Of a DNA stretch of 64,000 nucleotides, positions 18,418-55,995 are shown piece after piece. A program made the translations under genes and the position numbers. The stretch is taken from the NCBI GenBank assembly GCA_043826435.1, contig JBDRQF010000053.1, positions 896-64,895 on the forward strand. The letters are read 5' to 3'. Within the stretch, counting starts at the first letter, position 1. Each line of letters begins with the position of its first letter. The stretch is from Elusimicrobiota bacterium (lineage in GTDB: Bacteria > Elusimicrobiota > Endomicrobiia > CG1-02-37-114 > JAHJSO01). The notes beneath the pieces are model-generated. The model saw nothing but the letters and a program-made list of their open reading frames with translations. It was not told the DNA's origin and ran no database searches.

Positions 18418-18421
18418 AGTC

Positions 18422-20275: not shown

Positions 20276-20347
20276 TCTTTTACTAAATATACGAGAAAAG
20301 AGAATGAAAAGATTAAAAACCTGAATTTAATGGGGACAAAATAGTTC

Positions 20348-24904: not shown

Positions 24905-24930
24905 TAAATAAAACAAGGGGTAGAAAATCA

Positions 24931-32316: not shown

Positions 32317-32573
32317 TGTTAAGTTATTCTTGATTTAGTCGATTTTCTGACATGGCGCACATCTGTTTCTTCTTTTGTTTTGATTTTTTCGGGTCTTTCA
32401 ATAAAGTGAGCAATCGGGGATAACTTCATCTAATATAGTGGGCAAAATTATCCTATTAACTTTAATTCTGCCACCCAAAATGCTCCACTTTTTTCCTTTC
32501 TTCCGTAATAAAGCAAAAATCTTAATCTGTCTGTACTACCCACTCTTTTAGAAAGACCTAAATAATGGAATGA

Positions 32574-33545
32574 TTAAAATCTTGCAGAAAAACTTATTCT
32601 GTGTGTATCACCAAGTAAACCATATGGCACAAATGAATAATCCATCTGGTAGTTGGTGAAGAGTTTCAAGCCAAGCCCTGCTCCAAAGCCTGTGAAATTT
32701 GTCTTATCTATATTATCTTGTGTTATTATGTCTTTATTTGATATTACACCTTCTATTAACTTACCTGCATATCCTGCTCGTAGTGCTAATATATTTACTG
32801 GACAATATTCTGTCCCTACACTTACTATTGTTCTTCCTTCGTATATTTGTTGTTTTATATCAACTGCTACTGTTATTGCACTTATAGTGTAGCCGAGTCC
32901 TGCTGTAACGGTTAATGGCAGATTGTATCCTTCTGAGATAAATTTCATCTGTGGACCTATGTTCTGTATTGATAGCCCTGCTTTCAGGTTGTTTATTGGT
33001 GTCTGGTAAAGTGTTCCTAAATCTATTGCTACTCCCTGTGCTGTGTGGTTTTCTATGTTTTGCTGAATGATCTTAAGATTTAATCCTGCTGAGAGTGATT
33101 TTGAAAGTTCTGGCATGACTTTACTATAACTCAATGTTACTGCAAGGTCATTTGCAGAAAATGGATTGGTTCTTTGACGATTCACATCTCTACCTTCTAT
33201 TTCTCCTTGAGATAAATATATTACACTCCCTGCAACAACTCCTGACTTGAGAGGGTGAGCATAACTAATAAAGTCAAGTTTTGTATCTACTAACCATTCT
33301 GTATGCATTGCTGAGATTTCTCTTTTGCTTAATTGTGCAAGTCCTGCTGGATTCCAGTGTATTGCTGTTACATCGGTTGCTACAGCGGTAAATGCAGAAC
33401 CCATTCCTATTGGACGAGCACCTATGCCAATATTAAGAAACGAAGCACCTGTTGTTTCTGAAAAACAGTTAGCAATTGTAAAACAGAATAATAGTAAAGT
33501 TACAGTTGATAACACTGAAATTTTTTTGATAATGTTTCTGTTCAT
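32574..33545 (-). CDS. PorV/PorQ-family-like outer-membrane beta-barrel protein, paralog of 24931-25902, directly downstream of the minus-strand cargo gene
   Basis: 'TTGASFLNIGIGARPIGMGSAFTAVATDVTAIHWNPAGL'. C-terminal '...GLLGDTHRISFSARF'. 323 aa. Confidence 0.55.
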   Translation of the reverse strand: MNRNIIKKISVLSTVTLLLFCFTIANCFSETTGASFLNIGIGARPIGMGSAFTAVATDVTAIHWNPAGLAQLSKREISAMHTEWLVDTKLDFISYAHPLKSGVVAGSVIYLSQGEIEGRDVNRQRTNPFSANDLAVTLSYSKVMPELSKSLSAGLNLKIIQQNIENHTAQGVAIDLGTLYQTPINNLKAGLSIQNIGPQMKFISEGYNLPLTVTAGLGYTISAITVAVDIKQQIYEGRTIVSVGTEYCPVNILALRAGYAGKLIEGVISNKDIITQDNIDKTNFTGFGAGLGLKLFTNYQMDYSFVPYGLLGDTHRISFSARF

Positions 33546-33581
33546 TGATTTTCTACCTCTACAGTAGTTTCTTGCTCACTA

Positions 33582-36500
33582 TTATTTTATCACTGCAACT
33601 TTATTCAGTGATTTTATTACTTTGTCATCTTTCTGTGCACGGACTAGATATATGAATACACCTGATGCTACATCGGGAGTATCCCAGGTGTATTCATACG
33701 CATATTTGTTGTCTATGATTTTCCAGTCATTACCAGAAATTTCAACTGAATGCACCAACTCTGCTGCTATGTTGTATATTTGTATTTCAATTTTATCTGC
33801 AGTACCTACTTCTATGTGTATCGTTGGGTTCTTACCTTCTTTTGCTGGATTTGGAAACGCATATACTTCACCAAGTTTGAATGTTGGGTCTGCAGTAATT
33901 TTTGGTTCTGGTTGTTCATCTGTTGACGGTGGTTCAGAAATAGCCACACCAGGAATGGGTGACATAATCTGATATAGTGAGAAATGGTTTGTCTCACAGG
34001 AAAGAGTATTTTCATCTGGATTGACTTTTGAACTTTCTATAGGTTCCCACAAACTTTTTTCTTCATTCCAGTAATATATTTTTAAGTCAGTCTCATCAAT
34101 ATATTTCACATTTTCATCAGTATAGTTCATTACAATTGTTATTGGTTTAGCAAATTGATTTGTGTCAGCATTAAATTCATAGCCTTTACCAACAGGTCTA
34201 ATTTTTATTTTCTCTGCTGATAATTTCTTACCATAACTAACCTGAACTGACATTGCAAGTATTTCTGTTTCTTTTCCTAACGCTCCTTTCGGTATAATCA
34301 ACTTTACACCGTCAGAACTTGTCAATTCGTCACCTTCAGATGAAACTTTTGTCATTATACTCGGTGAAATTATTTTGATTGTATCACTACCTATAAATTT
34401 TATCGGTTTGGATTCTATGTCAATTTCACCTTCAACTGTAATTTTTATTTCATCAGCAGGTATTACTACTTTTTGTAGTGCCTCTCTATCAAACTTCACC
34501 ATAAGGTCAGGTATACCGTCGTTGTCATGGTCGCCAATTCCTTTTGGTTTTGTCTCGGCATAAATTGGCTCTATTTCCATATTACCAATTTTTGTAATCT
34601 TTAATGTATTAATATTAACATCTTTCAGGTTATATTCAGTCGGTAATTCAATATATGCCGTAACCCATTTACCTTTTGATTTCAAGTTTAATGTATCAGG
34701 GTCAATATCAACAATAGCAACAACATGCGGTTCTTTACTAAATAGCGCATATAAAGATACTTGATATATCTCTGCTACTATACGATTGTTTGCTAAGTCA
34801 ACAAATTGATTTATTCCTGTAGTAACCCAAGTTGTTCCATCATACCGACGAATTTCTAAATTATTCCCGTCAAGTACAGGATCGTAAAGAAAAACTAAAA
34901 TTGCAGGTGCTAGAAAACTGCCCTGCGTTACATTTATATCATAAATAGCACTTTGTAAGAAAAGTCCTTTGTCGTTTATAGCATATGCTGTAGTAACCGG
35001 GATAGAAACTGTAGTAATACTTACATCAAAAGTAGGGTCGTGTCGTAAAATAATGTCTAAATAACTTGTACTAATTGTATTTGATTTAACTAATTCTATT
35101 GTTCCACTTTTGGGCTCTGAAGTAATCCATGGTACTGTAGGGGCTGGTTTATATCTTACCCAGGTATCATATTTATACACAGCAAAATTATAGTTGTCTG
35201 TATACCAGGAAACATTTTGAGTTAGACCTTCTGTAAACTTACCAAGGTCGCCAAAATCAATTGTTGTTATTGGGAGGATACTTGTTGAAGTTATTACTAT
35301 CTTAAACTGAAGTTCTACATTATCACCAGGAGCACATCCAGTAAAACTTATTGTTGATGTACTACCAATCACTATCGGGTCGGGGAAATCAATTAAATCA
35401 ACTACAATAGGTGCTGCTGTATCTACCTTTATAGCAAATGCACTTATCTTTTCTTGGCTTTCTTGTAGTGAAGGATTACTTGCTTTAACCTTGAGATAAT
35501 AGTTCCCGGATTTGATTTCTCCTGTTTGTTTCTTACCATCCCAGACAAATGAATGTAATCCACCAGATTGTGAAATTCTAGTTGCAAGTGTTCGTGCAAC
35601 TGTGCTTTTGTCTGATTCAAGTATTTCAACAGTTACTTCTTCTGCGGTTTCACTTAATATATATGAAACCGTACTTGTTTCACTTTCAAAAGGATTAAAT
35701 CTACTTGGTGTTGCTGATAAATTACTTATCGTTATTGATTTAACATTTATTACAAATTTGTCATTAGTATCAGGTAACATTACATTACCAACTAAATCAC
35801 TCGCATTCATAACAGTTATCTTTGCTATACCATCACCAGTATTCGGGTCAATTGCTACATCACTTGCAACTGTATATGTATCACTTGATTTATATGTAGT
35901 TGACCAAACAGGATTTGTATTTGCATATAAAGGTGGTACAACACCTTCCGGGTCAAAATATACCGTCGGTGGCTTTGTCAAATCCATCGATTCAGAGAAA
36001 ATTATCTTAAATATAGGTAATGTTCCAACTGCAGTAACTGTGCTTGGTGTAACTGTAATTGAAGTTGCTACTGGTGGAACACCATCCTTTGCTTGAATTG
36101 ATGAACCGATGACAGCATAATTTCCTGCTAGATCTGCAATTGAACTTACAATTATTACCCAGGGGTTAGCATCTGTTGGCATTACTGATGTTAAAGTTAT
36201 TTCAACTATTGTGTCTGTAATCAAACTGCCTGATTGCACAGTAAAACTTTCAACATTAAAGTCATTGCCACTTACTGTAGCAGCATCTAATTTCTCACTG
36301 AAAATTACATGAATTGTTGACGTACTTTTTGTTACTGCTGAAATTAATGATGGCGGAGTTTTATCACAAATTGCCCATGCTTGATTATTACCTACAGTTT
36401 GAATATTACCATCTTTATCCACTGGTTGAATAGTGTAGTAATAAACTACTCCGTCGATCAAACCTATACCTGAATCAATATATTTTGTAACTGTTGTTGT

Positions 36501-36857
36501 GGCAATTTCTATTCCTAATACAGGGTAAGTTGCTCTGAAAATTTTATAGTACCCTATACCTGTATTATCGTCAGTAACTTCTGACCAAGACAGTTCAATG
36601 TTACCTTGTATTCGGGCAGTTGCTGTTAAATCAACAACTGCGAATGGTGGTATGGTGTCTACATATTGGATATAGTCATATTCAATTATGGCTGAACGAA
36701 GCAACAGTTTATTACAAGTTATATCTTTATAGTCATATTCCAGTGTAGTTGAATGCAGTGTCAATGGTTGCGCCCCCGAATAAGTAATACAAAAAACAAG
36801 ATACAGAAGAAAAAAACAAAATGTGATTTTCTGCCAAATCCTTGACCTGAAGAACAT
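33582..36857 (-). CDS. Giant secreted surface protein (1091 aa) with FN3/Ig-like repeats and the conserved C-terminal cassette ending in a T9SS-type sorting domain
   Basis: N-terminal signal anchor. FN3-like 'IELSWSEV...YYKIFR...YYYTI'. The C-terminal 250 aa are homologous to the other two cargos, ending 'VYAFPNPAKEGKNPTIHI...IYNIAAELV...ASGVFIYLVRA...NKVAVIK'. Confidence 0.75.
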   Translation of the reverse strand: MFFRSRIWQKITFCFFLLYLVFCITYSGAQPLTLHSTTLEYDYKDITCNKLLLRSAIIEYDYIQYVDTIPPFAVVDLTATARIQGNIELSWSEVTDDNTGIGYYKIFRATYPVLGIEIATTTVTKYIDSGIGLIDGVVYYYTIQPVDKDGNIQTVGNNQAWAICDKTPPSLISAVTKSTSTIHVIFSEKLDAATVSGNDFNVESFTVQSGSLITDTIVEITLTSVMPTDANPWVIIVSSIADLAGNYAVIGSSIQAKDGVPPVATSITVTPSTVTAVGTLPIFKIIFSESMDLTKPPTVYFDPEGVVPPLYANTNPVWSTTYKSSDTYTVASDVAIDPNTGDGIAKITVMNASDLVGNVMLPDTNDKFVINVKSITISNLSATPSRFNPFESETSTVSYILSETAEEVTVEILESDKSTVARTLATRISQSGGLHSFVWDGKKQTGEIKSGNYYLKVKASNPSLQESQEKISAFAIKVDTAAPIVVDLIDFPDPIVIGSTSTISFTGCAPGDNVELQFKIVITSTSILPITTIDFGDLGKFTEGLTQNVSWYTDNYNFAVYKYDTWVRYKPAPTVPWITSEPKSGTIELVKSNTISTSYLDIILRHDPTFDVSITTVSIPVTTAYAINDKGLFLQSAIYDINVTQGSFLAPAILVFLYDPVLDGNNLEIRRYDGTTWVTTGINQFVDLANNRIVAEIYQVSLYALFSKEPHVVAIVDIDPDTLNLKSKGKWVTAYIELPTEYNLKDVNINTLKITKIGNMEIEPIYAETKPKGIGDHDNDGIPDLMVKFDREALQKVVIPADEIKITVEGEIDIESKPIKFIGSDTIKIISPSIMTKVSSEGDELTSSDGVKLIIPKGALGKETEILAMSVQVSYGKKLSAEKIKIRPVGKGYEFNADTNQFAKPITIVMNYTDENVKYIDETDLKIYYWNEEKSLWEPIESSKVNPDENTLSCETNHFSLYQIMSPIPGVAISEPPSTDEQPEPKITADPTFKLGEVYAFPNPAKEGKNPTIHIEVGTADKIEIQIYNIAAELVHSVEISGNDWKIIDNKYAYEYTWDTPDVASGVFIYLVRAQKDDKVIKSLNKVAVIK

Positions 36858-36887
36858 ATGTTACACTTCCTTTATCCCAAGCGGTAA

Positions 36888-37265
36888 TTATCTATTTCCA
36901 TATAAAATATCTACTATCTTAAATATAGAGTAGACAACCTTATCTTTAGTCCTTTCAGGAAAATCGTTTTTTAAATTGAGTAGTCCGTATTTCGTCAATA
37001 ACTTTATTGGTTTCCTTTGAAATTGATAACACTTATAAGGAGAAAGTATTTTGAAACCAGCAGAAACGAGATATCTTTTCATTACCTCATAAGTGAAATA
37101 ATAAATATGTCCTTCAGGCATGACATAATGTGATTTTTCACCTTTATACCTAAATCTGTCAAAATTAGAAGTTGAATGATAAAACAGGCCTTTTTCTTTG
37201 TCCAAAAACTGCGAATCTTTACTGATATCATGTGTTCCTATATCGGTATAGGGCGGTAATACCAA
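36888..37265 (-). CDS. Hypothetical protein, possibly a C-terminal fragment of a class I methyltransferase
   Basis: Weak resemblance to the Methyltransf_23 C-terminal region. No motifs. Confidence 0.25.
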   Translation of the reverse strand: MVLPPYTDIGTHDISKDSQFLDKEKGLFYHSTSNFDRFRYKGEKSHYVMPEGHIYYFTYEVMKRYLVSAGFKILSPYKCYQFQRKPIKLLTKYGLLNLKNDFPERTKDKVVYSIFKIVDILYGNR

Positions 37266-37396
37266 ATTGAATTTTTCGCCTGTATTGTTTTAAAATTTTT
37301 TTAATCACGATATAATATTTGATTGAAAGAAGGAATATAAATAGCATTTTCACCTGTACTGAAAACTTTTCCAGCATACAATTCTTTTATTGGTAA

Positions 37397-38119
37397 TCAA
37401 TATGGTTTTTTCGCAACAAAAATGAGGCCATCTGACCACATCACATTTTTTTGATTATTGAATTTTATGGATTGTTCATAATTCAAAAAAAGCAGAGGGA
37501 ATTTTTTATGTAATATTCGGCTTAAAAATGAAAAAAAACATGTTATTAAAGGATGCAACCAAATATAATAGCTTTTTAAACTAGCGCGATAAATTCTGAT
37601 CTCTTGAAATTTATTTTTTTCTAAATACGAGTTCAATAAATATGGTGGAAGGACACTTATATGGTTGTGTTCTGAGAGCCAGAATGGATCAAAAAGAAAG
37701 AAACCTCCGGTCAGAAGGAATTTTACTCTTGAGTAAAGCGAGTTTATGTTGGGTATATCTAAGATGAAAATACCCTTTGGTGAGAGAATACGAAAAAATT
37801 CAGATAATGTGAACATAGGATTTTCAACATGTTCAATACCAGCAAGACACACCACCGCATCGAAGAAATTATCTTCAAAGGGTAAACGCTTGTTCATGTC
37901 AGCAAAAACACATTTAACTTTTTCAAAAGACATTTTTTCCGGTAAAATGTCCGCCGCATATACTTTATATTTATTTTCAAATAGTATCGATGTAAACAAA
38001 CCACTCCCTGCTGGAATGTCTAATACAGTTGACACATTGGGATAGGTTTTTAGAATTGATAAAACTTGTTCGTAAATTCCTAACATGGTTTGCCTCACCA
38101 TCTCATTGTTGGTTCCCAT
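37397..38119 (-). CDS. Class I SAM-dependent methyltransferase
   Basis: 'VLDIPAGSGLFT' (motif I) and 'FDAVVCLAGIEHVENP' (motif II/post-I). Confidence 0.65.
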   Translation of the reverse strand: MGTNNEMVRQTMLGIYEQVLSILKTYPNVSTVLDIPAGSGLFTSILFENKYKVYAADILPEKMSFEKVKCVFADMNKRLPFEDNFFDAVVCLAGIEHVENPMFTLSEFFRILSPKGIFILDIPNINSLYSRVKFLLTGGFFLFDPFWLSEHNHISVLPPYLLNSYLEKNKFQEIRIYRASLKSYYIWLHPLITCFFSFLSRILHKKFPLLFLNYEQSIKFNNQKNVMWSDGLIFVAKKPY

Positions 38120-38189
38120 AAGCGTTCCTTGACCTTTATTGATTAGAGAAATAAATCAAATTCACAATAACGGAATTATCTATTAAAAT

Positions 38190-39524
38190 TCATTTTGCGT
38201 CAGTTCTTAATGTAATTTCTATTTGTATATATCTGTGGTTAGCAGGACCGTTAATTTTTTGTGTTTTGTATACTTGGTGATATGTAGGCAATACATCAGT
38301 AGAAGCAAATGGAGCATTGCTTCCTCGCCATCTTACTTCGCGAGTAATTGTTATTCCATCGTAATCTATCACTTGTCTATAACCCGACGGTAATTCCGGA
38401 TATTCATCGGCAATGAAAGTTATTGACTTGATCCGTCCAGTATCTTTCTGTGTATCAATCACAGGACTTCTTATTGACGCCGAGACAACCCCAGGTTTAA
38501 GTTTAATATTCCCATTAACATCCAATTCAACTAATGCACTTGTTGTGATAGGAGTGCCATTTTCATCTATCCACCCAGACCATTGATCATTAAACCAAGA
38601 AGAAATTCTTCCAATGCCGTGAGCGCCAATGTTCTGAAATTCCCCATTTTCTACCGAGCCCGCCTTAAGACAAAGGGATGATGACTTTAAAAGAAATATC
38701 TCTTTGTCAATATCTAAAAACTGGGGATCTACGGAAATACTTTTCTGACCTATTTTCTGAGGAACTGGAAGTGGTGCATAGTTCACTTTTTCATTTTGAA
38801 AGAAATTGTTGTAGTCGCAATATAAAACTCTATCCCAAGAACGCACGACAATACTTTCTGACCCCTTATTTTCTACAAAATTGCAATTTTTGACACTGCC
38901 TATATCAACAAAATAACAAATTCCATCCCGTGTGGCAGAATTTCTAACGAAATTGCAATTCCTTATACTGTAGGAACCATAATAGCGTGAAACAATACAT
39001 GCACCTTCTGTTGCTTTATTGTTGAAAAAATCGCAAAATTCAATACTAATAAAATATCCACTGATATATATCGCTCCGCCAGTGTGCGCAACATTATCTT
39101 TGAATACACAATTTCTAATAGTGATGAAACTACCACCCATAAAATTACTTCCTTCAAAAACTCCAAAGCAGTTTTGTATTATAAATGAATCAATCGCAAT
39201 GTAATCTCGGTTAATAACAAAACCCATTCGCGTTTTCTCTCCATCAATAACCACCTCACCAACACCTTTAAGATAAATATTTGCTTCTTTCGTTCCTGAA
39301 TTAACAAATGTTATTGTTTCTTTATATGTTCCCTGATTGACATAAAGGGTATCACCTGCCACTGCTTTGCTGGTTGCTGCATTGATAGTTTTAAATGCCG
39401 TATCCCAACATAGTCCGTTATTAGTGTCACTCCCATTTAAAGAATCAACATAATAATTTGTTGCATTTACTGTAAACCAAACTGATAAAACTAAAACTGT
39501 TGCAAGAAATAATGTTTTCTTCAT
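38190..39524 (-). CDS. Secreted right-handed parallel beta-helix (pectin-lyase-fold) repeat protein
   Basis: Probable start at 'MKKTLFLATVLVLSVWFTVNA' (signal peptide). The ORF-track start at 39557 is 11 codons upstream. Repeats 'IRNCVFKDNVAHTGGAIYI', 'FCDFFNNKATEGACIV', 'IRNCNFVRNSATRDG', 'VKNCNFVENKGSES'. Confidence 0.6.
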   Translation of the reverse strand: MKKTLFLATVLVLSVWFTVNATNYYVDSLNGSDTNNGLCWDTAFKTINAATSKAVAGDTLYVNQGTYKETITFVNSGTKEANIYLKGVGEVVIDGEKTRMGFVINRDYIAIDSFIIQNCFGVFEGSNFMGGSFITIRNCVFKDNVAHTGGAIYISGYFISIEFCDFFNNKATEGACIVSRYYGSYSIRNCNFVRNSATRDGICYFVDIGSVKNCNFVENKGSESIVVRSWDRVLYCDYNNFFQNEKVNYAPLPVPQKIGQKSISVDPQFLDIDKEIFLLKSSSLCLKAGSVENGEFQNIGAHGIGRISSWFNDQWSGWIDENGTPITTSALVELDVNGNIKLKPGVVSASIRSPVIDTQKDTGRIKSITFIADEYPELPSGYRQVIDYDGITITREVRWRGSNAPFASTDVLPTYHQVYKTQKINGPANHRYIQIEITLRTDAK

Positions 39525-39765
39525 CTGTGAATAACCCCCTAAGTTATTGCCAAACATCTATAGTTCTTCTTTGACCTTTCTGGTAAATGACTGCCAGTGG
39601 GATAAACGTCTTGATATAATTTTACAATACTTAAATCATTTTGTCAAGTACACCGGATAACAGTACACAGGATATCTGTAATGTCTTTATCTTTTTCCGA
39701 CGATTTTTTGCACAAAATTTTACAATAAAAAAGGATAGCCCCCGCCAGGATGTCATGTTGATTTT

Positions 39766-40620
39766 TCAGGAGTTTTTATAAGCTAGTACAATAAAACTTT
39801 TTGCAAGTAATTTTGCCAGTTTCAGAGCGAGTATTGTTTTTATGTAAAACAATTTTATGTCCGGGTGAGCGTCAATGTTCAGGTTTTTATATTTAGCATA
39901 GATTCCGGCATTTTGCCTGTCACAAGCATAACCTTTTTCTTCAATATTAATAACCCCGCACGGATACTGATAGTTGATTACCGGCATATATACCGTGCTT
40001 CCGGCAAACCCTGCAGACCCGACCATCCCTTTTAATTTCCGGTAAGAATAGATGGGCGTTTTGTAGAGGCGCCCCGCCAGAAGGTAGGAAACAAAATCAG
40101 CGATTTTTCTCGGTAACATACAAACAAAGGGTAAACTGACGTGCGGGTCCCACAAAAGATTTAAGGGGAACCATCTGTTTTCTATCCCGAGGTATAACAC
40201 GCCGCCGTTTTTTAACAATGAAAACGCCCGTGACAGGACCCGTTGATGGACGTTTTCAAAATCCCCTGCCTCGTTTATTGCCGTCCATTCCAGTACGCCG
40301 TTAAGCAAAATCAGGTCAAAGGAATTTTCAGCCAGGCGGGCGGACAGGAACGGCTCCTGTATCAATGAAATGTTATTAACGTTGCCATTCTTAATCCTTT
40401 CCCTTATTATGCCCGCATATTCATCGGATGGCTCCACCGCGGTTACTTTTAGGCAGTGTTTCGCAAAGGCAATGCTTATGCCCCCGCCGCCGGCTCCGAT
40501 ATCCAGGATATTTTTGTTTTTTAACAGGCCGGTTTCCCGCATGATAAATTGGGCCATCATTTCCCCGCGGTTTAACCCGTCCAGCCAGGAGGATAGTTTA
40601 TTGGTTTCTGAGTTTTTCAT
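39766..40620 (-). CDS. Class I SAM-dependent methyltransferase
   Basis: 'ILDIGAGGGGISIAFAKHCLKVTAVEPS'. Confidence 0.65.
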   Translation of the reverse strand: MKNSETNKLSSWLDGLNRGEMMAQFIMRETGLLKNKNILDIGAGGGGISIAFAKHCLKVTAVEPSDEYAGIIRERIKNGNVNNISLIQEPFLSARLAENSFDLILLNGVLEWTAINEAGDFENVHQRVLSRAFSLLKNGGVLYLGIENRWFPLNLLWDPHVSLPFVCMLPRKIADFVSYLLAGRLYKTPIYSYRKLKGMVGSAGFAGSTVYMPVINYQYPCGVINIEEKGYACDRQNAGIYAKYKNLNIDAHPDIKLFYIKTILALKLAKLLAKSFIVLAYKNS

Positions 40621-42658
40621 TTGATAAAATCCATTTGGTTGTGTAATTGATTATTCTTCTGAAAAATATCCTTTTTAATACAGGAGGCCTGCCTGCATTA
40701 AAAGCAAACTCATTGCCCGTTATATGAACGAAATAGCGTATTTCAAAAAAGGACAACAGGTCGTCATTAACGACAGATTCAGACGCGTACGCCTGCAGAA
40801 ATATCCTTTTTAGTTCTTTTATCTTTTTATAATCAACAAAAGGACGTTTTAGTTTAAACATGTCCATACAAACCAAAAAGGTTGCCGGGTCATCATATAT
40901 AGTCCTGTAATCAAAATTTTCAAAATCCACGATACATATCTTGTTTTGTTTGTTGATTAAAATGTTTCTTGGTCCGAAATCCCCGTGACACCCGGTGACG
41001 TCAAAAGACATTTTCCTTATTCCGGGCAGGTTTTTTTTGAAATACGTCCTGAAAATATTTACTGCCTTTGCCGGCATGCCCATCTTTTCCAGGTTAAACA
41101 AATCATTTTGTATGACCCGGTCGTCCGTAAGGAATAGCTCCCCGCCGGGTAATTTTGTTTTTTGCGGCGTTTTATTTTGAAATATTAACAGCCATTCAGC
41201 GCATTTTTGTATAAGTTGTTGGACATGGATGCGTCCATATGGGGGGAAGATGGGGCGGGCATATTTAACCAAGGCGTCTCTAAATTGTGAGGCGTCCTTA
41301 ATAACCTCTGTGGCCACGTAGTTGAAGTCCGACGAGTAACATACGGGGTTTTCAGTTATAAAGCCATTTTCCTGATTAAAAATATCGCCCAATCTTACCA
41401 TAAGACCAAAAATCTCCGGCGCCTTTTTTCCGGGGACAGGTTTTACAACGACGGTTTTCTCCGTATAGTCGGAAAAGGCCAGATTTATTTTCATAATCCT
41501 TTTGCCACGCGCGGAAAATTTAATTATTTTTTTACCGCAGGCGTTTTCTATGTCTGTCTTTAGTTGGTTTATAAAACCCTCAGGATAGAGTTTTCGCGGG
41601 AGCGGCCTGGCAATCACGCCGTACAATTTTTCCAGTTCCTGCATTTGTTTGCCTGTGTCAAACTTCTCTTTTATTTTTATTCTCGCATTTTCCCCGGCGA
41701 TGTTTCTTAATTTTTCATCCCCCAGTACTTTTAATAAAATTCCTGACAATTCCAAAGCATTGGGTTTAACCAGAAAACCGTCCCTGTTATTCTCAATGAT
41801 TTCTATGGGACCACCGGTGTTCGTTGATATTACCGCTTTGCCGCATGCCATCGCTTCAATTATTATCCTGCCGAACGGCTCGGGCTGGATTGACGGGTTA
41901 ACGACGATGTCGCAGATGCTCATCAACTGCGGGACATCTTTTCTGAACCCGGCAATTATAACGTCGCCAGTTAATCCCAAATCCCGGATTTTTGTTTCTA
42001 TGTTATTTTTCTCGGGCCCATCGCCGGCTATCAAAAACACAACGTTATTTATGTTTTCTTTAACTATTTTCGCTGCTTCCAGAAACAGGGAATGTCCTTT
42101 CCACGAATCAAAGCGGGAGAACATGCCTACAACCATTTTGCCATTTTCTATGTTTAAGCCCTTACGAAGTTCCCCTGTATCAATGCCCGGTTTAAACGTT
42201 TCCGTGTCCACTGCATTGTATATTTTTATGATTTTATCCTTTTGCCTTTCCCGGGATAACTGTTCGCCCACGGCGTCGGAGATAACTATAATCCTCGCAG
42301 ACAAAGAGGCAATTAACCTGTCTCTCCAGCCGTGCGGATGTATTACGCGGACGTGCCATACAAAAGGTATCCCTAACAGTTTTGATATGAGCGCTGCAGC
42401 GAAAGCGTACTTTTTCACGGGCGCGTTGCAATGGACGATTGACGGCATAAATTTTTTGATGGCGGAAAACAAGCCCCGCAACGGCACCACCCGGCATGGA
42501 ATATTTTCCGCTTCAAGCAGGTTAGTGTAGGAGGACCTGCCGGGGACAAACACGACAGGGTCGTATTTTGACCTGTCCAGGTGTTTTAATATGAGCAACA
42601 AACTTATCTGCCCGCCTCCCGGCGGCTCAATCGGAGTATCAAGATATAAAACTTTCAT
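40598..42658 (-). CDS. Fusion protein: N-terminal GT4 glycosyltransferase plus C-terminal APH/Kdo-kinase-like phosphotransferase domain
   Basis: GT4 N-terminus ('MKVLYLDTP...GGGQISLL', 'EPFGRIIIEAMACGKAVIST'). C-terminal kinase motif 'CHGDFGPRNILI...IVDFEN'. Confidence 0.6.
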   Translation of the reverse strand: MKVLYLDTPIEPPGGGQISLLLILKHLDRSKYDPVVFVPGRSSYTNLLEAENIPCRVVPLRGLFSAIKKFMPSIVHCNAPVKKYAFAAALISKLLGIPFVWHVRVIHPHGWRDRLIASLSARIIVISDAVGEQLSRERQKDKIIKIYNAVDTETFKPGIDTGELRKGLNIENGKMVVGMFSRFDSWKGHSLFLEAAKIVKENINNVVFLIAGDGPEKNNIETKIRDLGLTGDVIIAGFRKDVPQLMSICDIVVNPSIQPEPFGRIIIEAMACGKAVISTNTGGPIEIIENNRDGFLVKPNALELSGILLKVLGDEKLRNIAGENARIKIKEKFDTGKQMQELEKLYGVIARPLPRKLYPEGFINQLKTDIENACGKKIIKFSARGKRIMKINLAFSDYTEKTVVVKPVPGKKAPEIFGLMVRLGDIFNQENGFITENPVCYSSDFNYVATEVIKDASQFRDALVKYARPIFPPYGRIHVQQLIQKCAEWLLIFQNKTPQKTKLPGGELFLTDDRVIQNDLFNLEKMGMPAKAVNIFRTYFKKNLPGIRKMSFDVTGCHGDFGPRNILINKQNKICIVDFENFDYRTIYDDPATFLVCMDMFKLKRPFVDYKKIKELKRIFLQAYASESVVNDDLLSFFEIRYFVHITGNEFAFNAGRPPVLKRIFFRRIINYTTKWILSNEKLRNQ

Positions 42659-42702
42659 AAAAACTGTCGGCTAAGAGTTACGCCATTCATGTCCGAGGTA
42701 AT

Positions 42703-43527
42703 TTACTTCCTTGCTACGGCTAAAATTGACAAATACCAGTCCTTTCCGAATAATTTTGAAACGTAGTATGAGATTTTTTCTATTATTTTCCAGTAGGGGT
42801 CAACCTGACAAAAGTCAGGCCCCAATCTTACCACCCTGAAATTGTTTTTTTCAAGTAGAAGTTTTAATGTGATATAAGAAAAGTGATACAGATGCGGTTC
42901 TTTAGAATCCGACGTATATATTTGGAAATAATATCCATTAATTAATCTATAAAATTTTTGTCCGATTATATCGTGTATGTTTGGCACAGCAACGAACAGA
43001 TGTCCACCGGGTTTAAGTAAATGGTATGCCTTTTTTAATGTAATCTCTGGATGTGATAAATGTTCAAGTGTATGCCAGAATGTAATAATATCAAACGAAT
43101 TTTCCTGCAACCCGGAATCTTCCAATGTTGTCTTGGTAATATCAAGGCCGAAATTATCTTTTGCATATTGAACAGCAAACCCTGAAATTTCTACGCCTGA
43201 AATATCATAACCGGCATTTTTAGCACGGTAAAGGAACAGCCCCTCCCCGCAGCCGACATCAAGAAGTTTACCAGATGGCATAACTCTTTTTACAACCTTA
43301 ACTCGGTTCTGCCACAGTTTTTGTCTTCTTAATTGTTGTTTTGGTGTAATCCAGTGTGAATAATAATCGCTCCCGTATTTTTCTAATAATTCATTTTGGT
43401 CAGGTTGTAGGTTGGTAAAAACCAATTTACAATTTGTACAAATATAGATATGGATGCCATAGAGACCATTTTTATATGGGATGAAATCAGTACCATTACA
43501 AATTATGCATTGACTCACTTCGAGCAT
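42703..43527 (-). CDS. Class I SAM-dependent methyltransferase with an N-terminal Cys4 zinc ribbon
   Basis: 'CIICNGTDF...CTNCKLVF'. 'LLDVGCGEGLF'. 'FDIITFWHTLEHL'. Confidence 0.65.
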   Translation of the reverse strand: MLEVSQCIICNGTDFIPYKNGLYGIHIYICTNCKLVFTNLQPDQNELLEKYGSDYYSHWITPKQQLRRQKLWQNRVKVVKRVMPSGKLLDVGCGEGLFLYRAKNAGYDISGVEISGFAVQYAKDNFGLDITKTTLEDSGLQENSFDIITFWHTLEHLSHPEITLKKAYHLLKPGGHLFVAVPNIHDIIGQKFYRLINGYYFQIYTSDSKEPHLYHFSYITLKLLLEKNNFRVVRLGPDFCQVDPYWKIIEKISYYVSKLFGKDWYLSILAVARK

Positions 43528-44507
43528 AACTTTACAATCCTTCCAATATCAAACATAACATCAGCGGTCAATTTGATACACGGAAAAACAAAAAAGGTTA
43601 TTATTCTTTTACCTTTACTAAAATTAGATAAATGAAAATAATTAAACATAAATCTTGTTCTGGATATTTGTAAAAAATACCAGACAAAAAATGCTACCGG
43701 TAAAATTATCCAACCAAAGATAACACTCAATACTATAACAGGTAAAAGTTTCAATATTATTGATGTTGAAATTAGATAGTTAGTGTGAACAGTATGTTTT
43801 AGAAATAAATCAGCATCGGCTTTACCTCTACGAATGTACCATTTTATTATCTTAAAAAAATTGTTTCTCGGATGGTGCCATACCACAGCATCCGGCACAT
43901 ATCCAAAAGCATTATTTCCAAGTTTTTTTGTTATTCTTATTGACAAATCTGTATCCTCGCTACCGTAACGATTTTTCAAATCAAACCAGCCTACATTTTG
44001 GATAACTGATTTTTTAATTATGGTATTACAGGTAGCAACCTGGGACAATGGAATAACCTTGCCTTTAGAAAAATTATGTAAACGGAAACCACCCCCGGGA
44101 TGGCCCAAAACACCCTCACAGAAACCAATAATGTTGGGTTGACCGGGGAACACTGCGCCCATTACGCCGCCCATTACGCCGACAAGATTTTTGGGTTCTT
44201 GTATCTCTTTTGTAAGTTCGTAAAACCAACTTTCCGTAACCTCCACATCATCATCAATAAAAACAATATAATCACCACCTGCATTTTTTACACCGATATT
44301 TCTCTGATTGCTGTACCCGGCTTCTGAAAACGGCAGTTTGATATGTTGGACAGGATATTTTAAATCAGATATAGCCCCTCCTGACTCAACAACAATAACC
44401 TCAACTTCCGAGGGGATAAATTCCAGAAGTTTTTTCAGACAATTTATTAAAAGTTCCCTGTTATCTTTTGAGATTATCACTATTGAGAATTTCATTGTAA
44501 TATTCAA
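43515..44507 (-). CDS. GT2-family glycosyltransferase with a C-terminal membrane segment
   Basis: 'FSIVIISKDNRELLINCL' and 'DYIVFIDDDVEV' (DxD). Confidence 0.65.
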   Translation of the reverse strand: MNITMKFSIVIISKDNRELLINCLKKLLEFIPSEVEVIVVESGGAISDLKYPVQHIKLPFSEAGYSNQRNIGVKNAGGDYIVFIDDDVEVTESWFYELTKEIQEPKNLVGVMGGVMGAVFPGQPNIIGFCEGVLGHPGGGFRLHNFSKGKVIPLSQVATCNTIIKKSVIQNVGWFDLKNRYGSEDTDLSIRITKKLGNNAFGYVPDAVVWHHPRNNFFKIIKWYIRRGKADADLFLKHTVHTNYLISTSIILKLLPVIVLSVIFGWIILPVAFFVWYFLQISRTRFMFNYFHLSNFSKGKRIITFFVFPCIKLTADVMFDIGRIVKLCSK

Positions 44508-45639
44508 TCATTTTGCTAACAATATGTTTCCACTGATATTTTTCTTCAATAAGTTTTCCACTGTTCTTTCCGAGCATTATTCTTTTTTGAGAATTGTTTA
44601 ACAATTCAATAACAGCATTAGCAAATGCAAGAGGGGTTTCCGCAAACACAATGTTATGATTGTTTTCAACCTCAATTCCTTCACAAGCATTTCTTGTTGC
44701 CACCACAGGAAGCCCGAACGCGAGTGCTTCTAAGATTTTATTTCTAATCCCGAGACCGCTTCGTATCGGGGCAACAAAGATACTGGAATTTTTTAAATAA
44801 TCGTAGATATTACTAACATAACCTGTAACAATTATGGACTTATCTTTAACAGCGAGGGCTGAAACTTTTTTTGACGGATTTCTGCCCACTATATAAAATT
44901 TAACATTTTTTATTTTATTTTTTATTTTTGGATAAATTCTTTCAACAAAATATAAAACAGTATCAACATTTGGAAAAAATGACATATCCCCGGTAAAGAT
45001 AAGGGTTTTGTTATTTGGCGAAACGCCTGATGGAAAACTTTCAGTATCTACCCCAGAAGGAACTATATAAACCTTCTTGTTCTTATATCTTTTTAATATA
45101 TAATCTCTTGCTTCCTCGGAGACCACAAAAAAATATTTATAATGAGCGTAAAATTTTCTATCTGCGAGATAAAACCTGGGTATTCTTAAAAGTTTTATTA
45201 ATTTTCTTAAAATATTACATTCATACCAGACCTCATACCATGCACCCTTCAACCCACAAGCCCATAAATCTATAATTAGAGGTATATCTTTAACATTTAC
45301 AAAATACTCGGCCATTTGAAATTTATGAACATGGATTAAATCATATTTATTCTTGCCAAAGATATCATTTACTACGGTCTCAAATTTTTTGTCTTTGCTG
45401 TACGCCTTCAGTAAAAAAAGATTCTTTAGACGCGATGTAACATTGTCCCGACATTCAACAGTATGGATGTTATCCACAAGGTCCTTAATTTCGTCCGTTA
45501 TTTCTGCGGAAGGTTCAGCAAAAGTGAGCAAGTCCACATCCACCTTTTCTTTTTTTAGATATTTCAACTGATGATACATTCTTGAACCACCACCGCCGAG
45601 AAGATGAGGGGGGCCAGGTGTAACAAAAAGTATTTTCAT
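44461..45639 (-). CDS. GT4-family glycosyltransferase
   Basis: 'GLGIRNKILEALAFGLPVVAT' is the GT4 C-terminal E-x7-E region. Confidence 0.65.
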   Translation of the reverse strand: MKILFVTPGPPHLLGGGGSRMYHQLKYLKKEKVDVDLLTFAEPSAEITDEIKDLVDNIHTVECRDNVTSRLKNLFLLKAYSKDKKFETVVNDIFGKNKYDLIHVHKFQMAEYFVNVKDIPLIIDLWACGLKGAWYEVWYECNILRKLIKLLRIPRFYLADRKFYAHYKYFFVVSEEARDYILKRYKNKKVYIVPSGVDTESFPSGVSPNNKTLIFTGDMSFFPNVDTVLYFVERIYPKIKNKIKNVKFYIVGRNPSKKVSALAVKDKSIIVTGYVSNIYDYLKNSSIFVAPIRSGLGIRNKILEALAFGLPVVATRNACEGIEVENNHNIVFAETPLAFANAVIELLNNSQKRIMLGKNSGKLIEEKYQWKHIVSKMIEYYNEILNSDNLKR

Positions 45640-46766
45640 TGTAGCGCTCTCTTAAAAACTTCTAAAGTTTCTCTGGCTGTTTTTTCCCAACTAAAAAATT
45701 TGGCACGGTTAATGCCTTTAAGACCTAATTCTTTTTTTAATTGTCCATCATTTAAAACTTTAAGTATAGCGGTTAAAATTTCTTCTTCGTTTAATGGGTT
45801 CACCAATATCCCGGCATCACCGACAACCTCCGGAATAGAAGTTGTATTAGAAGCAATCACAGGCACTCCACAAGCCATCGCTTCTACCACTGGGAGGCCA
45901 AACCCTTCATACAGGGAAATAAATACAAACATCTCGGCACCGCTATAAATATAAGGCAAATCCTCATCAGGAATATAATCCAAAACCAATATTTCTTCTT
46001 GTAGATTTAATCTGTGAATTGTTTCTATAATTTCTTGGCCCCAATATTTCTTTCCACAAAGAACCAATTTGTGCGGTATTCCATGAACCCTCTTGAGTTT
46101 TTCAAAAACATTTACCAATCTATGCAGGTTTTTATGTGGTCCGAGGTTGCCAACATAAAGTATATATCTTTCATCTATCTTGTATTTTCTTAAGACAGCT
46201 ATAATCCTCTCTTTATCTTCAATCATGTTAAAAATTTCATCAGCAGCAAGCGGAATAACAACTATTCTGTCTGGTTGAACATCATAATATTTACATAAAT
46301 CGTTTTTCGTATATTCTGAAATAGTTATCAAATATTTTGACCTTTTAATTGTATTTTTGAGACGTAAATCAAATATTTCTCTGTGTTCTTTATACCCGTC
46401 ATATTTCATTGTGGTAATATCATAAACCACTGAAACAATCTGACATTTCTTAAATACAGGAGAAAAATAAATTGTAGAAAAATAAATATCCGGATTACCA
46501 AAAAGTTTTTTTGTTAACGGCATACAAATATTTTCCCTGGTCCAAAAAAACTCTAAAATTCTATTAGGTATTCTAATTTTAGATAACAACACATTGGATG
46601 GAAAACTAAAATTATCTATGAGATTATTTTTTTTCACCCCAATCCTGAAAGATAAGGTATAGTGGTTTTCACTATCAATACTGAAAATATGTTTTAAAAC
46701 AGAATTCAAATATGATCTTCCACCTGCTTGACCAAGCAGAGGAAGTGCATCAATTGCTATTTTCAT
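45636..46766 (-). CDS. GT4-family glycosyltransferase
   Basis: 'EGFGLPVVEAMACGVPVIAS'. Confidence 0.7.
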   Translation of the reverse strand: MKIAIDALPLLGQAGGRSYLNSVLKHIFSIDSENHYTLSFRIGVKKNNLIDNFSFPSNVLLSKIRIPNRILEFFWTRENICMPLTKKLFGNPDIYFSTIYFSPVFKKCQIVSVVYDITTMKYDGYKEHREIFDLRLKNTIKRSKYLITISEYTKNDLCKYYDVQPDRIVVIPLAADEIFNMIEDKERIIAVLRKYKIDERYILYVGNLGPHKNLHRLVNVFEKLKRVHGIPHKLVLCGKKYWGQEIIETIHRLNLQEEILVLDYIPDEDLPYIYSGAEMFVFISLYEGFGLPVVEAMACGVPVIASNTTSIPEVVGDAGILVNPLNEEEILTAILKVLNDGQLKKELGLKGINRAKFFSWEKTARETLEVFKRALQ

Positions 46767-48042
46767 CCCAATTCCTCATCTCTTTAAAATCTAAAATTAA
46801 ATTGTTCGGGGAAAATACAACTTTTTTTTTCAATACACGATAAAAAATATAGCAACACAAACTAAAACCAAATATTTGTGTAAAAGCCGTTGCTATGGCG
46901 GCGCCAGACGGTCCAATTTTAGGAATTAACAGTAAATTTAAAGCGATATTCAGGAACAGATTAAATATTGCAACCATTAAAATTTTTTTTTGTTGATTTA
47001 TTGCAATAAATATACTACCAAAGATGATATTTGCGAACAAGAAAGGAACGCCTATCAACAAATAGTTAAAAACACTCACTGAATCTTTGAATTTCAAAGA
47101 TAAAAACGATAAAATGAATACTCTACCGAATAAAACAAATATTAAAAGAATTGCTACGCCAAGCAAAAATATTCCCGTTAAAGTTACTCTGATTAACGCG
47201 GCAAATCTTTTCATATCATTGGAATATTTAGAAATCAGAGGAAAAACGACCGAATTGACAACCGCTGGGAAGAACAATAAAAAATTATAAAATTGCAAAG
47301 CGCCATTGTATATTCCGACTTCGTTTTCTGATTTAAGAAACATCAACATTAGCGTGTCAATCTTTGTATATAACAGAGAAATTATTACTATCAAAAACAA
47401 GGGCATTGACTCTTTTAATAAAAACTTAATTTTCTCGTAGGAGGGCTTATAAATAGGAGTAACAATTCTTCTGCCGATTACAAACGAAATTGTGCTTACA
47501 ACATATTCATTAAAAACTTGAAATAGAAAATAATAAACAAAATCTAATTTTAAAACTATAGATATTATTATCTGCAGTAAAAAAAGCAACTTCTTGAAAT
47601 TGTTGAATATAACGAGGTACCATATTTTTAATTCTGAGTAATAGACCGAATTAACGGCGGTAATGGGGTATACCAAAAGTATAAAGGAATACAGAATAAC
47701 ATAAATTTTTTTTGTATTATCCAAAAAAATACTTGAAAATAATAATATTATTATAAAAGTAAAAAATGTTAAAAATGTTCTAAGCAAAATAACATTTCCT
47801 AAAAACCCCCCTCCATTTTTTTTATCTTTAGAAAGTTCTCGCGTCAAAATAGGAGACATTCCTATATCAGCAATTGGAGAAAATATTGAGATAAAACTGA
47901 AAACAAACCAGTATATGCCAAATTCTTCTACTGATAAATACCGCGCTAACAATGAAATAGTAGCGATTGAAAGTAATGTCTCAGGTATTTTTCCAAAAAT
48001 CTGCGACGATATATTAGCAAAAACTACTTTTGTGAATTTCAT
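46750..48042 (-). CDS. wzx: Wzx-like oligosaccharide flippase (MOP superfamily)
   Basis: 12 or more predicted TM helices. N-terminal 'ISSQIFGKIPETLLSIATISLLARYLSVEEFGIY' is typical of the polysaccharide-biosynthesis protein family. Confidence 0.6.
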   Translation of the reverse strand: MKFTKVVFANISSQIFGKIPETLLSIATISLLARYLSVEEFGIYWFVFSFISIFSPIADIGMSPILTRELSKDKKNGGGFLGNVILLRTFLTFFTFIIILLFSSIFLDNTKKIYVILYSFILLVYPITAVNSVYYSELKIWYLVIFNNFKKLLFLLQIIISIVLKLDFVYYFLFQVFNEYVVSTISFVIGRRIVTPIYKPSYEKIKFLLKESMPLFLIVIISLLYTKIDTLMLMFLKSENEVGIYNGALQFYNFLLFFPAVVNSVVFPLISKYSNDMKRFAALIRVTLTGIFLLGVAILLIFVLFGRVFILSFLSLKFKDSVSVFNYLLIGVPFLFANIIFGSIFIAINQQKKILMVAIFNLFLNIALNLLLIPKIGPSGAAIATAFTQIFGFSLCCYIFYRVLKKKVVFSPNNLILDFKEMRNWDENSN

Positions 48043-55015: not shown

Positions 55016-55831
55016 TCACAAAGACAAACTCTGGATTGTCTCTTTTATCGTTTCGGTATTTATGCCTGAAATTTCCTTGCCGTAACCGACCAGCAGGGCG
55101 GAATCGCAAATCTGGTTTATCCTTCGGGGAATCCCGCCCGAACGTTCGTATATAATGGGGAACACGCCCTGCTCAAAAATCCGATTCTGCGCCCCGGCGA
55201 TCGTCAGGCGGTGTTCTATGTAGCGGGGCAGTTCTTCACGGGTCAGGGCTTCCAGATGAAACTTCATCGCAATCCTCTGGCTCAGTTGTTTTATGCCCTC
55301 TATCCTTTCCTTTAATTCAGGTTGGCCGATAAGCAGAAGTGTAAGCAGGAATTTGTTTTCCGACTGGAAATTCAGCAACAACCGTATCTCCTCAAATATG
55401 TTCTTGTCTTCAATGACGTGCGCCTCGTCTATTACGACTACGGTTTTTTTGCCGTCAGCGAGATTGTTTTTCAGGGTGTTTTCCATGGCGATTAGAACGT
55501 CCGCCTTGCGCGTCGGAGGCGGCTGAATTCCCAGGTTATGGGCAATCATCTTTAACAATTCAAGGTCATCCAGACGGGGGTTATTTATGATTGCAAGTTT
55601 ATATACATCCTGTTCCAGTTCTTTCATCAGCGCCCTTGAGAGAAGGGTTTTCCCACACCCATAAACACCGGTGAGCAGTCCCGCCCCCTTGCTTTCTCTG
55701 ACGACATAAAGCATCCGGGCAAGCCCCTCCTCGTGTTGCTTTGAGTTGTAAAAAAATTTTGGGTCGGGCGTGTTTTCAAAAGGCCTTTCTTTAAGGCCCC
55801 AGTATTCTTCATACATAGTTATCCGTCCCAT
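55016..55831 (-). CDS. ExeA-like AAA ATPase (general-secretion protein A / PEP-CTERM-locus ATPase type)
   Basis: 'YEEYWGLKERPFENTPDPKFFY' (ExeA N-terminus). Walker A 'GVYGCGKTLL'. 'VVVIDEAH'. Confidence 0.6.
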   Translation of the reverse strand: MGRITMYEEYWGLKERPFENTPDPKFFYNSKQHEEGLARMLYVVRESKGAGLLTGVYGCGKTLLSRALMKELEQDVYKLAIINNPRLDDLELLKMIAHNLGIQPPPTRKADVLIAMENTLKNNLADGKKTVVVIDEAHVIEDKNIFEEIRLLLNFQSENKFLLTLLLIGQPELKERIEGIKQLSQRIAMKFHLEALTREELPRYIEHRLTIAGAQNRIFEQGVFPIIYERSGGIPRRINQICDSALLVGYGKEISGINTETIKETIQSLSL

Positions 55832-55842
55832 GTGTGCATGTC

Positions 55843-55990
55843 ATTGCGAGGAGCATCAGCGGTTGCGAGGCGAAGCCGAAGCAAACCCCTTGTCTTATGT
55901 GTGCAACTTCATCCGTATATCTGCACATCCCTCATGCTAAATATTGCGCATGCTGTTTGAGATTGCCACGCCCTTCGGGCTCGCAATGAC
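55843..55990. repeat. MITE-like element bounded by inverted termini TGTCATTGCGAGG ... CTCGCAATGACA (about 148 bp)
   Basis: The 5' end matches the forward units at 6.2 kb. The 3' end 'GAGATTGCCACGCCCTTCGGGCTCGCAATGACA' is identical to 6305-6338. Confidence 0.8.
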
Positions 55991-55995
55991 ACCTT

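Follow-up and report, generated by a model that had tools for sequence, protein, structure and literature searches.

The 64,000-nucleotide stretch of Elusimicrobiota bacterium DNA analysed here (contig JBDRQF010000053.1; hereafter the window) carries a family of short palindromic repeats at four intergenic sites. These repeats are probably repetitive extragenic palindromic (REP) elements of the CGTC-tagged superfamily, and form a family outside the four described within it. REPs are an ordinary class of bacterial repeat, and what is unusual in this version is the wide, near-exact conservation of its core. The repeating unit is a hairpin of 26-36 nt with the consensus Y GTC ATTGC GA (inner stem-loop) G(A/T/C)(A/G) GCAAT C Y, based on 240 foreign loci with about 500 non-redundant units between them (502 units for base counts). 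A prediction made earlier from the window alone had seen in these sequences dispersed, palindromic and non-coding repeats at four intergenic sites, which is borne out by the enrichment of an 11-mer and by the units found with a covariance model. It had also likened them to miniature inverted-repeat transposable elements (MITEs), a reading that is not supported, as the unit is a 26-36 nt hairpin, the interior of the largest composite (site D) is unique, no consistent target-site duplication is present and neither the window nor the foreign loci showed a transposase whose ends match.

Repeat units at four sites in the window

The 11-mer GTCATTGCGAG occurs in 10 exact copies in the window and in 11 when up to one mismatch is allowed, against 0.64 expected, and none of 100 shuffles of the window reached 11 matches. 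Scanning of the whole 64 kb with filters off, using a covariance model trained on 100 foreign units, found eight full units and one broken one at the same four intergenic sites and nothing else. All copies lie at gene boundaries, as originally predicted: at sites A to D the first head follows the upstream stop codon by 10, 1, 52 and 5 nt, respectively, and is in the sense orientation every time. The base before GTC is T in eight of the window units and C in two, the tails are CTC, CCC or CTT, and inverted pairs are present at two of the four sites.

Site A is a mosaic array that includes one convergent pair. It opens with a truncated unit (6196-6206, + strand) consisting only of the head GTCATTGCGAG, an exact 11-mer with no matching 3' half after it, 7 nt before the first full unit, GTCATTGCGAGGGGCGAAGCCCCGAAGCAATC (6214-6245, +). 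This unit lies 3' of the stop codon of the open reading frame (ORF) 18-6185, scores 54.7 bits (E 7e-10) and has a DNA fold of -8.1 kcal/mol (z -2.6). A full unit at 6260-6291 (+, 50.6 bits) and an inverted one at 6307-6336 (-, 36.4 bits) form the convergent (-> <-) pair, with a spacer of 15 nt, and a short unit with the inner hairpin GGC-GCA-GCC follows at 6362-6389 (+, 35.9 bits). Translation across this last unit gives MMCHCEAQPKQSLLLWAILICFVSV, and the unit may already belong to the following gene, at its 5' end, where it would encode the n-region of a signal peptide. The mechanically called ORF 6118-8634 runs through the entire array (VIASHRVIARGEAPKQSLRPLCHCEERSPEAI...); its real start is probably ATG 6355 or TTG 6394, and its product is a pyrroloquinoline quinone (PQQ) beta-propeller protein secreted by the type IX secretion system. 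Across the window the units can be read through as the peptides VIARGEAPKQS, CHCEERSPEAI and RARND. A search for such read-through peptides in annotated proteins, with positions 6187-6402 as query against a database of 5.8 billion proteins, gave eight word candidates, none of them significant.

Site B is a perfect tandem duplication (8625-8716, +; repeat family D4), in which 8625-8670 and 8671-8716 are 100% identical and each copy contains one unit with its flanks (8636-8665 and 8682-8711, both +, 37.9 bits each). The duplication had been recognised beforehand, correctly as to its inclusion of the stop codon, the TAG at 8632-8634 lying in the first copy, although its length is 46 bp rather than the 47 bp given. 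The single unit of site C (12629-12660, +, 42.7 bits), 52 nt 3' of the stop codon of a Bro-N gene, is degenerate, with an intact head, a scrambled interior (GAATGTAATGAC), the tail GCAGTC and an alternative fold.

Site D, between the stop codon of a WbqC gene (55996) and the start of an AAA_22 gene, is a composite of 153 bp (55839-55991, no strand assigned) with heads facing outward. It consists of a broken left unit at 55840-55884 (head at 55840-55850, degenerate body at 55863-55884, E 0.16), a 76-bp spacer (55885-55960) and an intact, inverted right unit found by the covariance model (55961-55990, -), and is thus a convergent pair of hairpins of which the left one is broken. The original prediction gave it as 55843-55990 with perfect inverted termini; the termini are indeed perfect over 12 nt (55839-55850 and 55980-55991), although the start had been placed about 4 nt late. 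These inverted termini are the heads of two oppositely oriented units. The spacer has no second match in the window or in the 240 foreign loci, and the whole element folds no better than its shuffles (z -0.40). The right unit and its flanks correspond to those of the inverted unit of site A over 33 identical nt (6305-6337 and 55959-55991), as had been noticed for the terminal segment common to the two sites. The two independent Logan assemblies that encode the WbqC protein of the window (L241 and L242) both end inside the unit, 30-32 nt past the WbqC stop codon, as expected of a multi-copy repeat in short-read assembly. An orthologous empty junction for site D was not found among 80 loci with WbqC relatives, the best of which was only 57% identical.

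Structure, distribution and class of the unit

The consensus unit comprises an unpaired YGTC head and a 5-bp outer stem, ATTGC/GCAAT, which a purine internal loop (GA opposite G-N-R) separates from a GC-rich inner stem of variable sequence and 2-9 bp; a C-GNA-G triloop caps the hairpin, and a short C-Y tail ends it. The inner part differs between units in length and sequence and keeps its self-complementarity, its most frequent forms being GAGCGAAGCGAC, (G)CGAAGC(G), CCGAAGG and GGCGAAGCC. Among the 502 foreign units the base preceding GTC is T in 53% and C in 41%. Their tail opens, directly after GCAAT, with a C that never varies; its second base is C (54%) or T (44%) and its third C or A. 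What most often follows GCAATC is CAG, which gives C-CA. When 100 distinct 32-nt units were fitted to the structure ...(((((..(((((...)))))...)))))., 87.7% of cells were paired and seven of the 10 pairs changed on both sides. None of 500 shuffles matched any of these measures, and partners slid out of register were paired in 21-54%. Columns 4-31, 5-30 and 6-29 are A-T or T-A in 91-97% of the same units, and the outer stem covaries occasionally (ATTCC/GGAAT, ATCGC/GCGAT, ATTTC/GAAAT). Stem mismatches are G.A (173, often in tandem), G.T (54) and A.C (26).

The G-rich strand, which carries GTCATTGCGAG, folds better than its complement in 329 of 384 units under RNA parameters and in 351 of 384 under DNA parameters. 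Among 291 unique units, none of which had been used for ascertainment, 61% of loops are triloops, of which 60% are GNA, and the closing pair is C-G in 72%, while GNRA accounts for only three of the 69 tetraloops. Extraordinarily stable DNA mini-hairpins follow a rule of GC/GC or CC/GG stems with a GNA loop, and mini-hairpins of the GCGAAGC and CCGAAGG type occur at single-stranded replication origins and N4 promoters (PMC13037366). At their apex most units have exactly GC-GNA-GC or CC-GNA-GG, as in the d(GCGNAGC) hairpin of Hirao and colleagues (PMC13037366), which differs in being a physical motif and no genetic element, whereas here it is embedded within a larger conserved hairpin. The folding of one strand, together with the loops typical of DNA mini-hairpins, suggests that copying takes place at the level of single-stranded DNA.

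Restriction of the repeats to this contig region would have spoken against a dispersed family, and the opposite was found. The pattern GTCATTGCGAG-N(2-7)-GAAG-N(3-10)-GCAATC, for which about 10 chance matches are expected in 596 Gb, matched at least 120 viral contigs and at least 120 contigs of species-representative genomes. The genome matches listed cover about 14 phyla, and the groups among them include Alpha-, Beta-, Gamma- and Deltaproteobacteria, Chloroflexota, Bacillota (Oscillospiraceae), Nitrospirota, Bacteroidota, Patescibacteria, Omnitrophota, Fibrobacterota, Spirochaetota, Atribacterota, Melainabacteria and others. Isolates among the matches listed include Bradyrhizobium, Sphingopyxis, Novosphingobium, Inquilinus, Hymenobacter, Bizionia, Thioalkalivibrio and Rickettsia, and unannotated units are found on plasmids of Methylosinus OB3b, Methylocystis, Novosphingobium, Calothrix, Trichormus variabilis, Tolypothrix, Halomonas and Legionella lytica. 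Complete genomes with the family include Bradyrhizobium genosp. P BDV5111 (CP188195), a member of the Sphingomonadaceae (OZ244721) and one of the Nitrospiraceae (CP070644). The same core is present in loci of 31% and of 68% GC. The distribution is patchy, and a control set of 80 metagenome loci picked only for a WbqC relative (346 kb) contained no unit. Around the invariant core, peripheral features are shared within a locus: units at different sites of one locus agree more often than units of different loci in the base before GTC (80% vs 47%), the 3' loop triplet (64% vs 34%) and the tail (38% vs 9%), which indicates amplification or homogenisation within genomes.

These features correspond in most respects to the CGTC-tagged superfamily of Di Nocera, De Gregorio and Rocco (2013; BMC Genomics 14:522; PMC3733652). 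According to the text of that paper, CGTC REPs are palindromes of 20-40 nt with an unpaired CGTC head, often TGTC, a stem that starts with complementary A-T at positions one and two, and an unpaired tail near CCA. They form mainly inverted pairs, often of two different unit types, lie less than 20 bp from the 3' ends of ORFs between co-directional or convergent genes, include in-frame intragenic copies and reach tens to thousands of copies per genome. Their hosts are given there as mainly alphaproteobacteria, with Chlorobi, Bacteroidetes, Spirochaetes and Thermotogae in addition, and the dRS3/NIME repeats of Neisseria and RPE-4/RPE-6 of Rickettsia are counted as members (PMC3733652). Set against this account, the units described here have in common the YGTC head, the stem starting with AT, the stop-proximal position, the predominance of inverted pairs and the in-frame copies, and the hosts overlap (Bradyrhizobium, sphingomonads, Micavibrio, Rickettsia, Bacteroidetes). 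Alphaproteobacterial copies end in 'C CAG', which is CCA-like, whereas the window tails are not CCA. The range is also wider here, with about 14 phyla among the matches listed and tailed phages, compared with five phyla in the published text.

The families CGTC-1 to CGTC-4 are described in the text of the same paper as having perfect stems of 8-9 bp and loops of 4-5 nt (PMC3733652). The split stem and triloop of the present unit match none of these four, so we file it as a new family; its encoded peptides (VIAS.., HCEE.., SLRG.., ..LAMT) are absent from the paper's CGTC-1, -3 and -4 lists. Conversely, the intragenic peptides published there, VIPAKAGI, SFPRKRES, VIAGLDPAIH and VIPWLDHGI, never correspond to ATTGCGAG units. 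Canonical CGTC-1 units (YGTC ATTCCCGC GAAA GCGGGAAT CCAG) share loci with ATTGCGAG units, and units like CGTC-3/4, with a 9-bp stem and a 5-nt loop (ATCCCGCGG CTTGA CCGCGGGAT), also stand beside them, the loci in which such units coexist with ATTGCGAG units being L124, L190, L151, L209, L221 and L176. In their text the authors allow that bulged repeats may have been missed by their survey (PMC3733652).

The units can also be compared with the GTAG REPs, BIMEs and REPINs of E. coli, Pseudomonas and Stenotrophomonas, which are served by REP-associated tyrosine transposases (RAYT; TnpA-REP, HUH-Y1). In both, a short imperfect hairpin follows a conserved unpaired 5' tetranucleotide, the elements occur 3' of genes as singles, inverted doublets and clusters, and there are lineage-specific subfamilies, which imply amplification within genomes. 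They differ in the head, which here is YGTC and not GT[AG]G, and in the flanking RAYT gene (REPtron), none of which was seen. GTAG REPs are largely species-specific, unlike the core conserved across phyla here. The subterminal hairpins of IS200/IS605 are likewise strand-specific single-stranded DNA hairpins with an adjacent short guide-like sequence, and these elements insert without target duplication; they differ in that no tnpA or tnpB lies between the hairpins here, and in that the present unit falls far short of an insertion sequence in length and is present in many copies. The HUH-Y1 survey of Quentin et al. (2018) connects certain subclasses of the enzyme with REPs whose foot is GT[AG]G or CnGA and offers nothing for CGTC units.

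Arrangement, gain and loss, and alternative explanations

In the 240 loci the units are found as singles, same-direction arrays and inverted pairs. Neighbouring units are convergent in 138 cases (heads outward, modal spacer 20-26 nt), divergent in 53 and direct in 84, and the spacers of pairs, which range from 6 to 40 nt, are mutually unrelated in sequence. The typical alphaproteobacterial element is a long unit and a short unit with a CAG...CTG spacer. In arrays the short pyrimidine-rich spacer is constant and the inner stems of neighbours differ by compensatory changes. Within 60 nt downstream of ORFs of at least 150 aa, units are sense-only in 136 cases and antisense-only in 60 across all loci (2.2:1), as against 46 sense and 21 antisense among stop-proximal singletons, and head-to-stop distances cluster below about 25 nt. 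A crude count in co-directional intergenic regions gave 94 sense and 81 antisense, which is little bias. The units of a phage contig are all found on one and the same DNA strand, irrespective of gene direction. The 13-kb viral contig L010 has 17 units between 2670 and 12790, all on the + strand and in five arrays, with a constant pyrimidine tract of about 11 nt as spacer and variable inner stems; most of its genes, portal and terminase among them, are on the - strand, and the units are antisense to its genes in 17 of 17 cases. Every unit of L062, L098 and L085 is sense.

The phages also allow filled and empty sites to be compared. In about 27 tailed-phage contigs (HK97-like capsid, portal), homologous junctions are filled in some and empty in others, the inserts of 37-48 nt consisting of the unit and a C-rich leader, sometimes with a G-rich trailer. 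This presence and absence at homologous sites means that units are gained or lost as discrete modules of 37-48 nt. No consistent target duplication was found in six or more filled/empty site pairs, nor was one present at the site D composite (left flank GTGTGCA, right flank CCTTTCA), so that the target-site duplications for which the original prediction proposed to look are lacking at both. In the portal gene of L012 (4709-4790) a unit pair contributes an in-frame insert of 19 aa (...ARNDSPFVSLRGAEHRSNL...) that is absent in L002, and the pair is present at the same position in L070, L087, L050, L097 and L106. Units thus tolerate in-frame residence inside genes. In the same phage family a unit also lies at the portal-scaffold junction, where its C-rich leader pairs with the downstream Shine-Dalgarno-like region. 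Multiplication also takes place locally through tandem duplication.

Several points weigh against the assignment to the CGTC-tagged REPs and against spread by a dedicated enzyme. The unit differs from the families described in the text of PMC3733652 by its 5-bp outer stem, internal loop, separate inner stem and loop of mostly 3 nt, and it is set apart as not catalogued in Di Nocera 2013 by that paper's text and supplementary peptide lists only. The same text reports no transposase associated with CGTC REPs (PMC3733652). A Pfam scan of about 40 main ORFs of the window found no Y1 transposase, and no REPtron-like, unit-flanked gene recurs in the 240 loci, phage structural genes aside. The 8-10 units counted come from 64 kb of the source genome only. 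Lastly, the stop-adjacent sense bias and the excess of G.T over A.C mismatches would also suit a role at the RNA level.

Such a role is the most serious alternative. The unit would then be primarily a structured RNA of 3' untranslated regions, a conserved stem-loop to which a widespread nuclease or RNA-binding protein binds and which determines the 3' ends of mRNAs, their stability or the termination of translation, with its spread being secondary. The sense heads 1-52 nt past stop codons at all four window sites and the overall 2.2:1 bias agree with this, as do the good folding of the G-rich strand only, the retention of the core in genomes of 31-68% GC and the convergent pairs, which offer a sense copy to each flanking gene; in the text of their paper the describers of the CGTC superfamily likewise argue that many REPs act as RNA (PMC3733652). 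However, the loops are GNA triloops of the sort typical for stable hairpins of DNA, with hardly any GNRA tetraloops among them, the units of phage L010 are antisense to its genes without exception, co-directional intergenic regions give nearly even counts, units persist in frame within coding regions, and the hairpin lacks the trailing U-tract of an intrinsic terminator. Rfam gave no match at gathering thresholds, and at E values up to 10 on 6150-6450 only chance-level matches to SAH and mir-8303, with no family matching the unit. We regard a primary RNA role as rather unlikely on this balance. Comparisons by eye with the kink-turn, sarcin-ricin, hammerhead-core, signal recognition particle (SRP) domain IV and group II intron domain 5 motifs were set aside, strand lengths or conserved bases being unfit. 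In full-text literature searches, the sequence strings and the peptides read through the units matched unrelated primers only.

The remaining alternatives are much weaker. A MITE in the proper sense would be a non-autonomous transposon of 150 bp, bounded by terminal inverted repeats and mobilised by a DDE transposase that recognises TGTCATTGCGAG. The perfect 12-nt inverted termini of site D suggest it, as do the rve integrase fragment at 14531-15064 and a 9-nt direct repeat, ATGTGTGCA (55830-55838 and 55897-55905), that flanks the left unit of site D. Bacterial MITEs such as Correia/NEMIS, RUP and ERIC are also small, non-coding and intergenic and can form a long hairpin. Nevertheless, the interior of site D is unique, so the 153-bp element itself is not repeated, and as a whole it folds like its shuffles. 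The composite shows no target-site duplication, nor do the phage inserts in any consistent form; it has no conserved interior, the repeated module is of about 30 nt, and no cognate insertion sequence was seen. Single units and direct arrays are common, and pair spacers vary from 6 to 40 nt without relation to each other. The ATGTGTGCA repeat was found post hoc, with a chance of about 0.04, and brackets no element with inverted ends; it was set aside as a target-site duplication. An origin as a MITE thus appears very unlikely. We consider it similarly improbable that the unit is a single-stranded DNA signal used by the host, either a mini-hairpin resistant to single-stranded DNA-binding protein (SSB) for priming or protein entry, as in phage G4 and ssi origins, or a conserved site of a DNA enzyme. 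The presence of the same mini-hairpins at single-stranded replication origins and N4 promoters (PMC13037366), the placement of all units on one strand in several phage genomes and the invariance of the core across phyla would fit such a signal, but not the patchy distribution, with no unit in 346 kb of control loci, the presence and absence at homologous phage sites, or the arrays and pairs after stop codons in place of regular spacing. Finally, degenerate CRISPR arrays, integron attC sites and intrinsic terminators share with the units a post-stop position (attC sites, terminators) or regular repeats of 28-32 nt with a 46-nt period (6214/6260 and 8636/8682), and the warning in the original prediction that the repeats could be mistaken for CRISPR was apt. 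Their probability is nonetheless negligible: a CRISPR array has identical direct repeats of 23-47 nt, unique spacers of 26-72 nt and cas genes nearby, whereas spacers here are just 14-25 nt and the repeats are non-identical and in part inverted, the Pfam scan of about 40 main ORFs, all site-flanking genes included, gave no cas, integrase or IntI gene, RYYYAAC/GTTRRRY boxes are absent, no unit is followed by a T-run, and terminator scans call none of them terminator-like.

Neighbouring features, copying of the unit and significance

The window contains further repeats and genes of mobile type, the latter being the rve fragment, HNH genes and HEPN genes. Near site C, the truncated rve (IS3-type) integrase fragment (14531-15064) and a HEPN-domain gene (15528-15914) are mobile or defence remnants. 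A 38-nt direct repeat, 95% identical (10360-10397 and 11656-11693), stands around a 1.3-kb segment with an AlbA_2/Schlafen gene (10414-10764) and a gene with HATPase_c_4 and Fic-like_C domains (10739-11593), and could mark an insertion or a duplicated regulatory site. Two PorV-like/UPF0164 genes (24931-25902, +; 32574-33545, -) form inverted arms of 986 nt that are 75% complementary, within an arm region of 24594-25902 and 32575-33892 that includes an additional, adjoining arm pair of 313 nt. The 6.7-kb block between them encodes Wza-like export, Wzz/tyrosine-kinase-like, glutamate-synthase-beta-like, DHODB-type Fe-S and HNH proteins, and may be an invertible or duplicated segment. Type IX secretion domains in the window are Por_Secre_tail and PorV-like, which taken by themselves would suggest a source in the FCB group. 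Blocks of low GC at 16000-24000 and 32000-48000 (0.35 vs 0.42 for the window), with PMT_2/TPR proteins, glycosyltransferases, methyltransferases, a Wzx-like flippase and a Wzy-like polymerase, are probably a horizontally acquired polysaccharide locus.

For the units themselves, the proposed mode of spread is that an enzyme acting in trans would read the YGTC head together with the ATTGC stem and copy the hairpin as single-stranded DNA. The precedents of RAYT with the GTAG REPs and of IS200/IS605 would make an HUH/Y1-type nuclease the leading candidate; a crude HUH...Y regular expression found no match in all ORFs, the pattern itself being uninformative. Among the TnpA-Y1 subclasses, 2.1 and 2.3 have no known REP. 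Template switching in quasi-palindromes is an established mutational mechanism; acting within the unit, it may keep the hairpin arms complementary, which would explain the concerted compensatory changes. Local tandem duplication would add copies beside those made from single strands. E. coli REPs act as 3' stem-loops on mRNA stability or translation termination. Because the present units are co-transcribed at gene 3' ends, they probably also affect mRNA stability or translation termination in this way, by analogy.

A more speculative proposal, which we hold only tentatively and think more likely wrong than right, is that the invariant core (YGTC, ATTGC/GCAAT and the GA/GNR loop) could be the recognition site of one widespread enzyme that processes single-stranded DNA, or of a host factor of universal occurrence, for instance primase. 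If so, the ATTGCGAG hairpins might be a handle on the mobiliser of the 'orphan' CGTC REPs, and tailed phages, with as many as 17 copies in 13 kb, could be what takes the family from one phylum to another.

Few non-coding repeats of bacteria are as abundant as REPs, and to our knowledge a copying enzyme is known only for the GTAG class. The question of what copies CGTC REPs has been standing since 2013, and the family described here is a good handle on it, having a long invariant core and a strand-specific fold that follows the rules of DNA mini-hairpins, and occurring in cultured Bradyrhizobium, Sphingopyxis, Methylosinus, Trichormus and Hymenobacter as well as in phages. Its patchy distribution makes phylogenetic profiling against candidate enzymes feasible. 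In practical terms, the units break short-read assemblies, create spurious ORFs and N-terminal extensions, and can pass for CRISPR arrays or MITEs.

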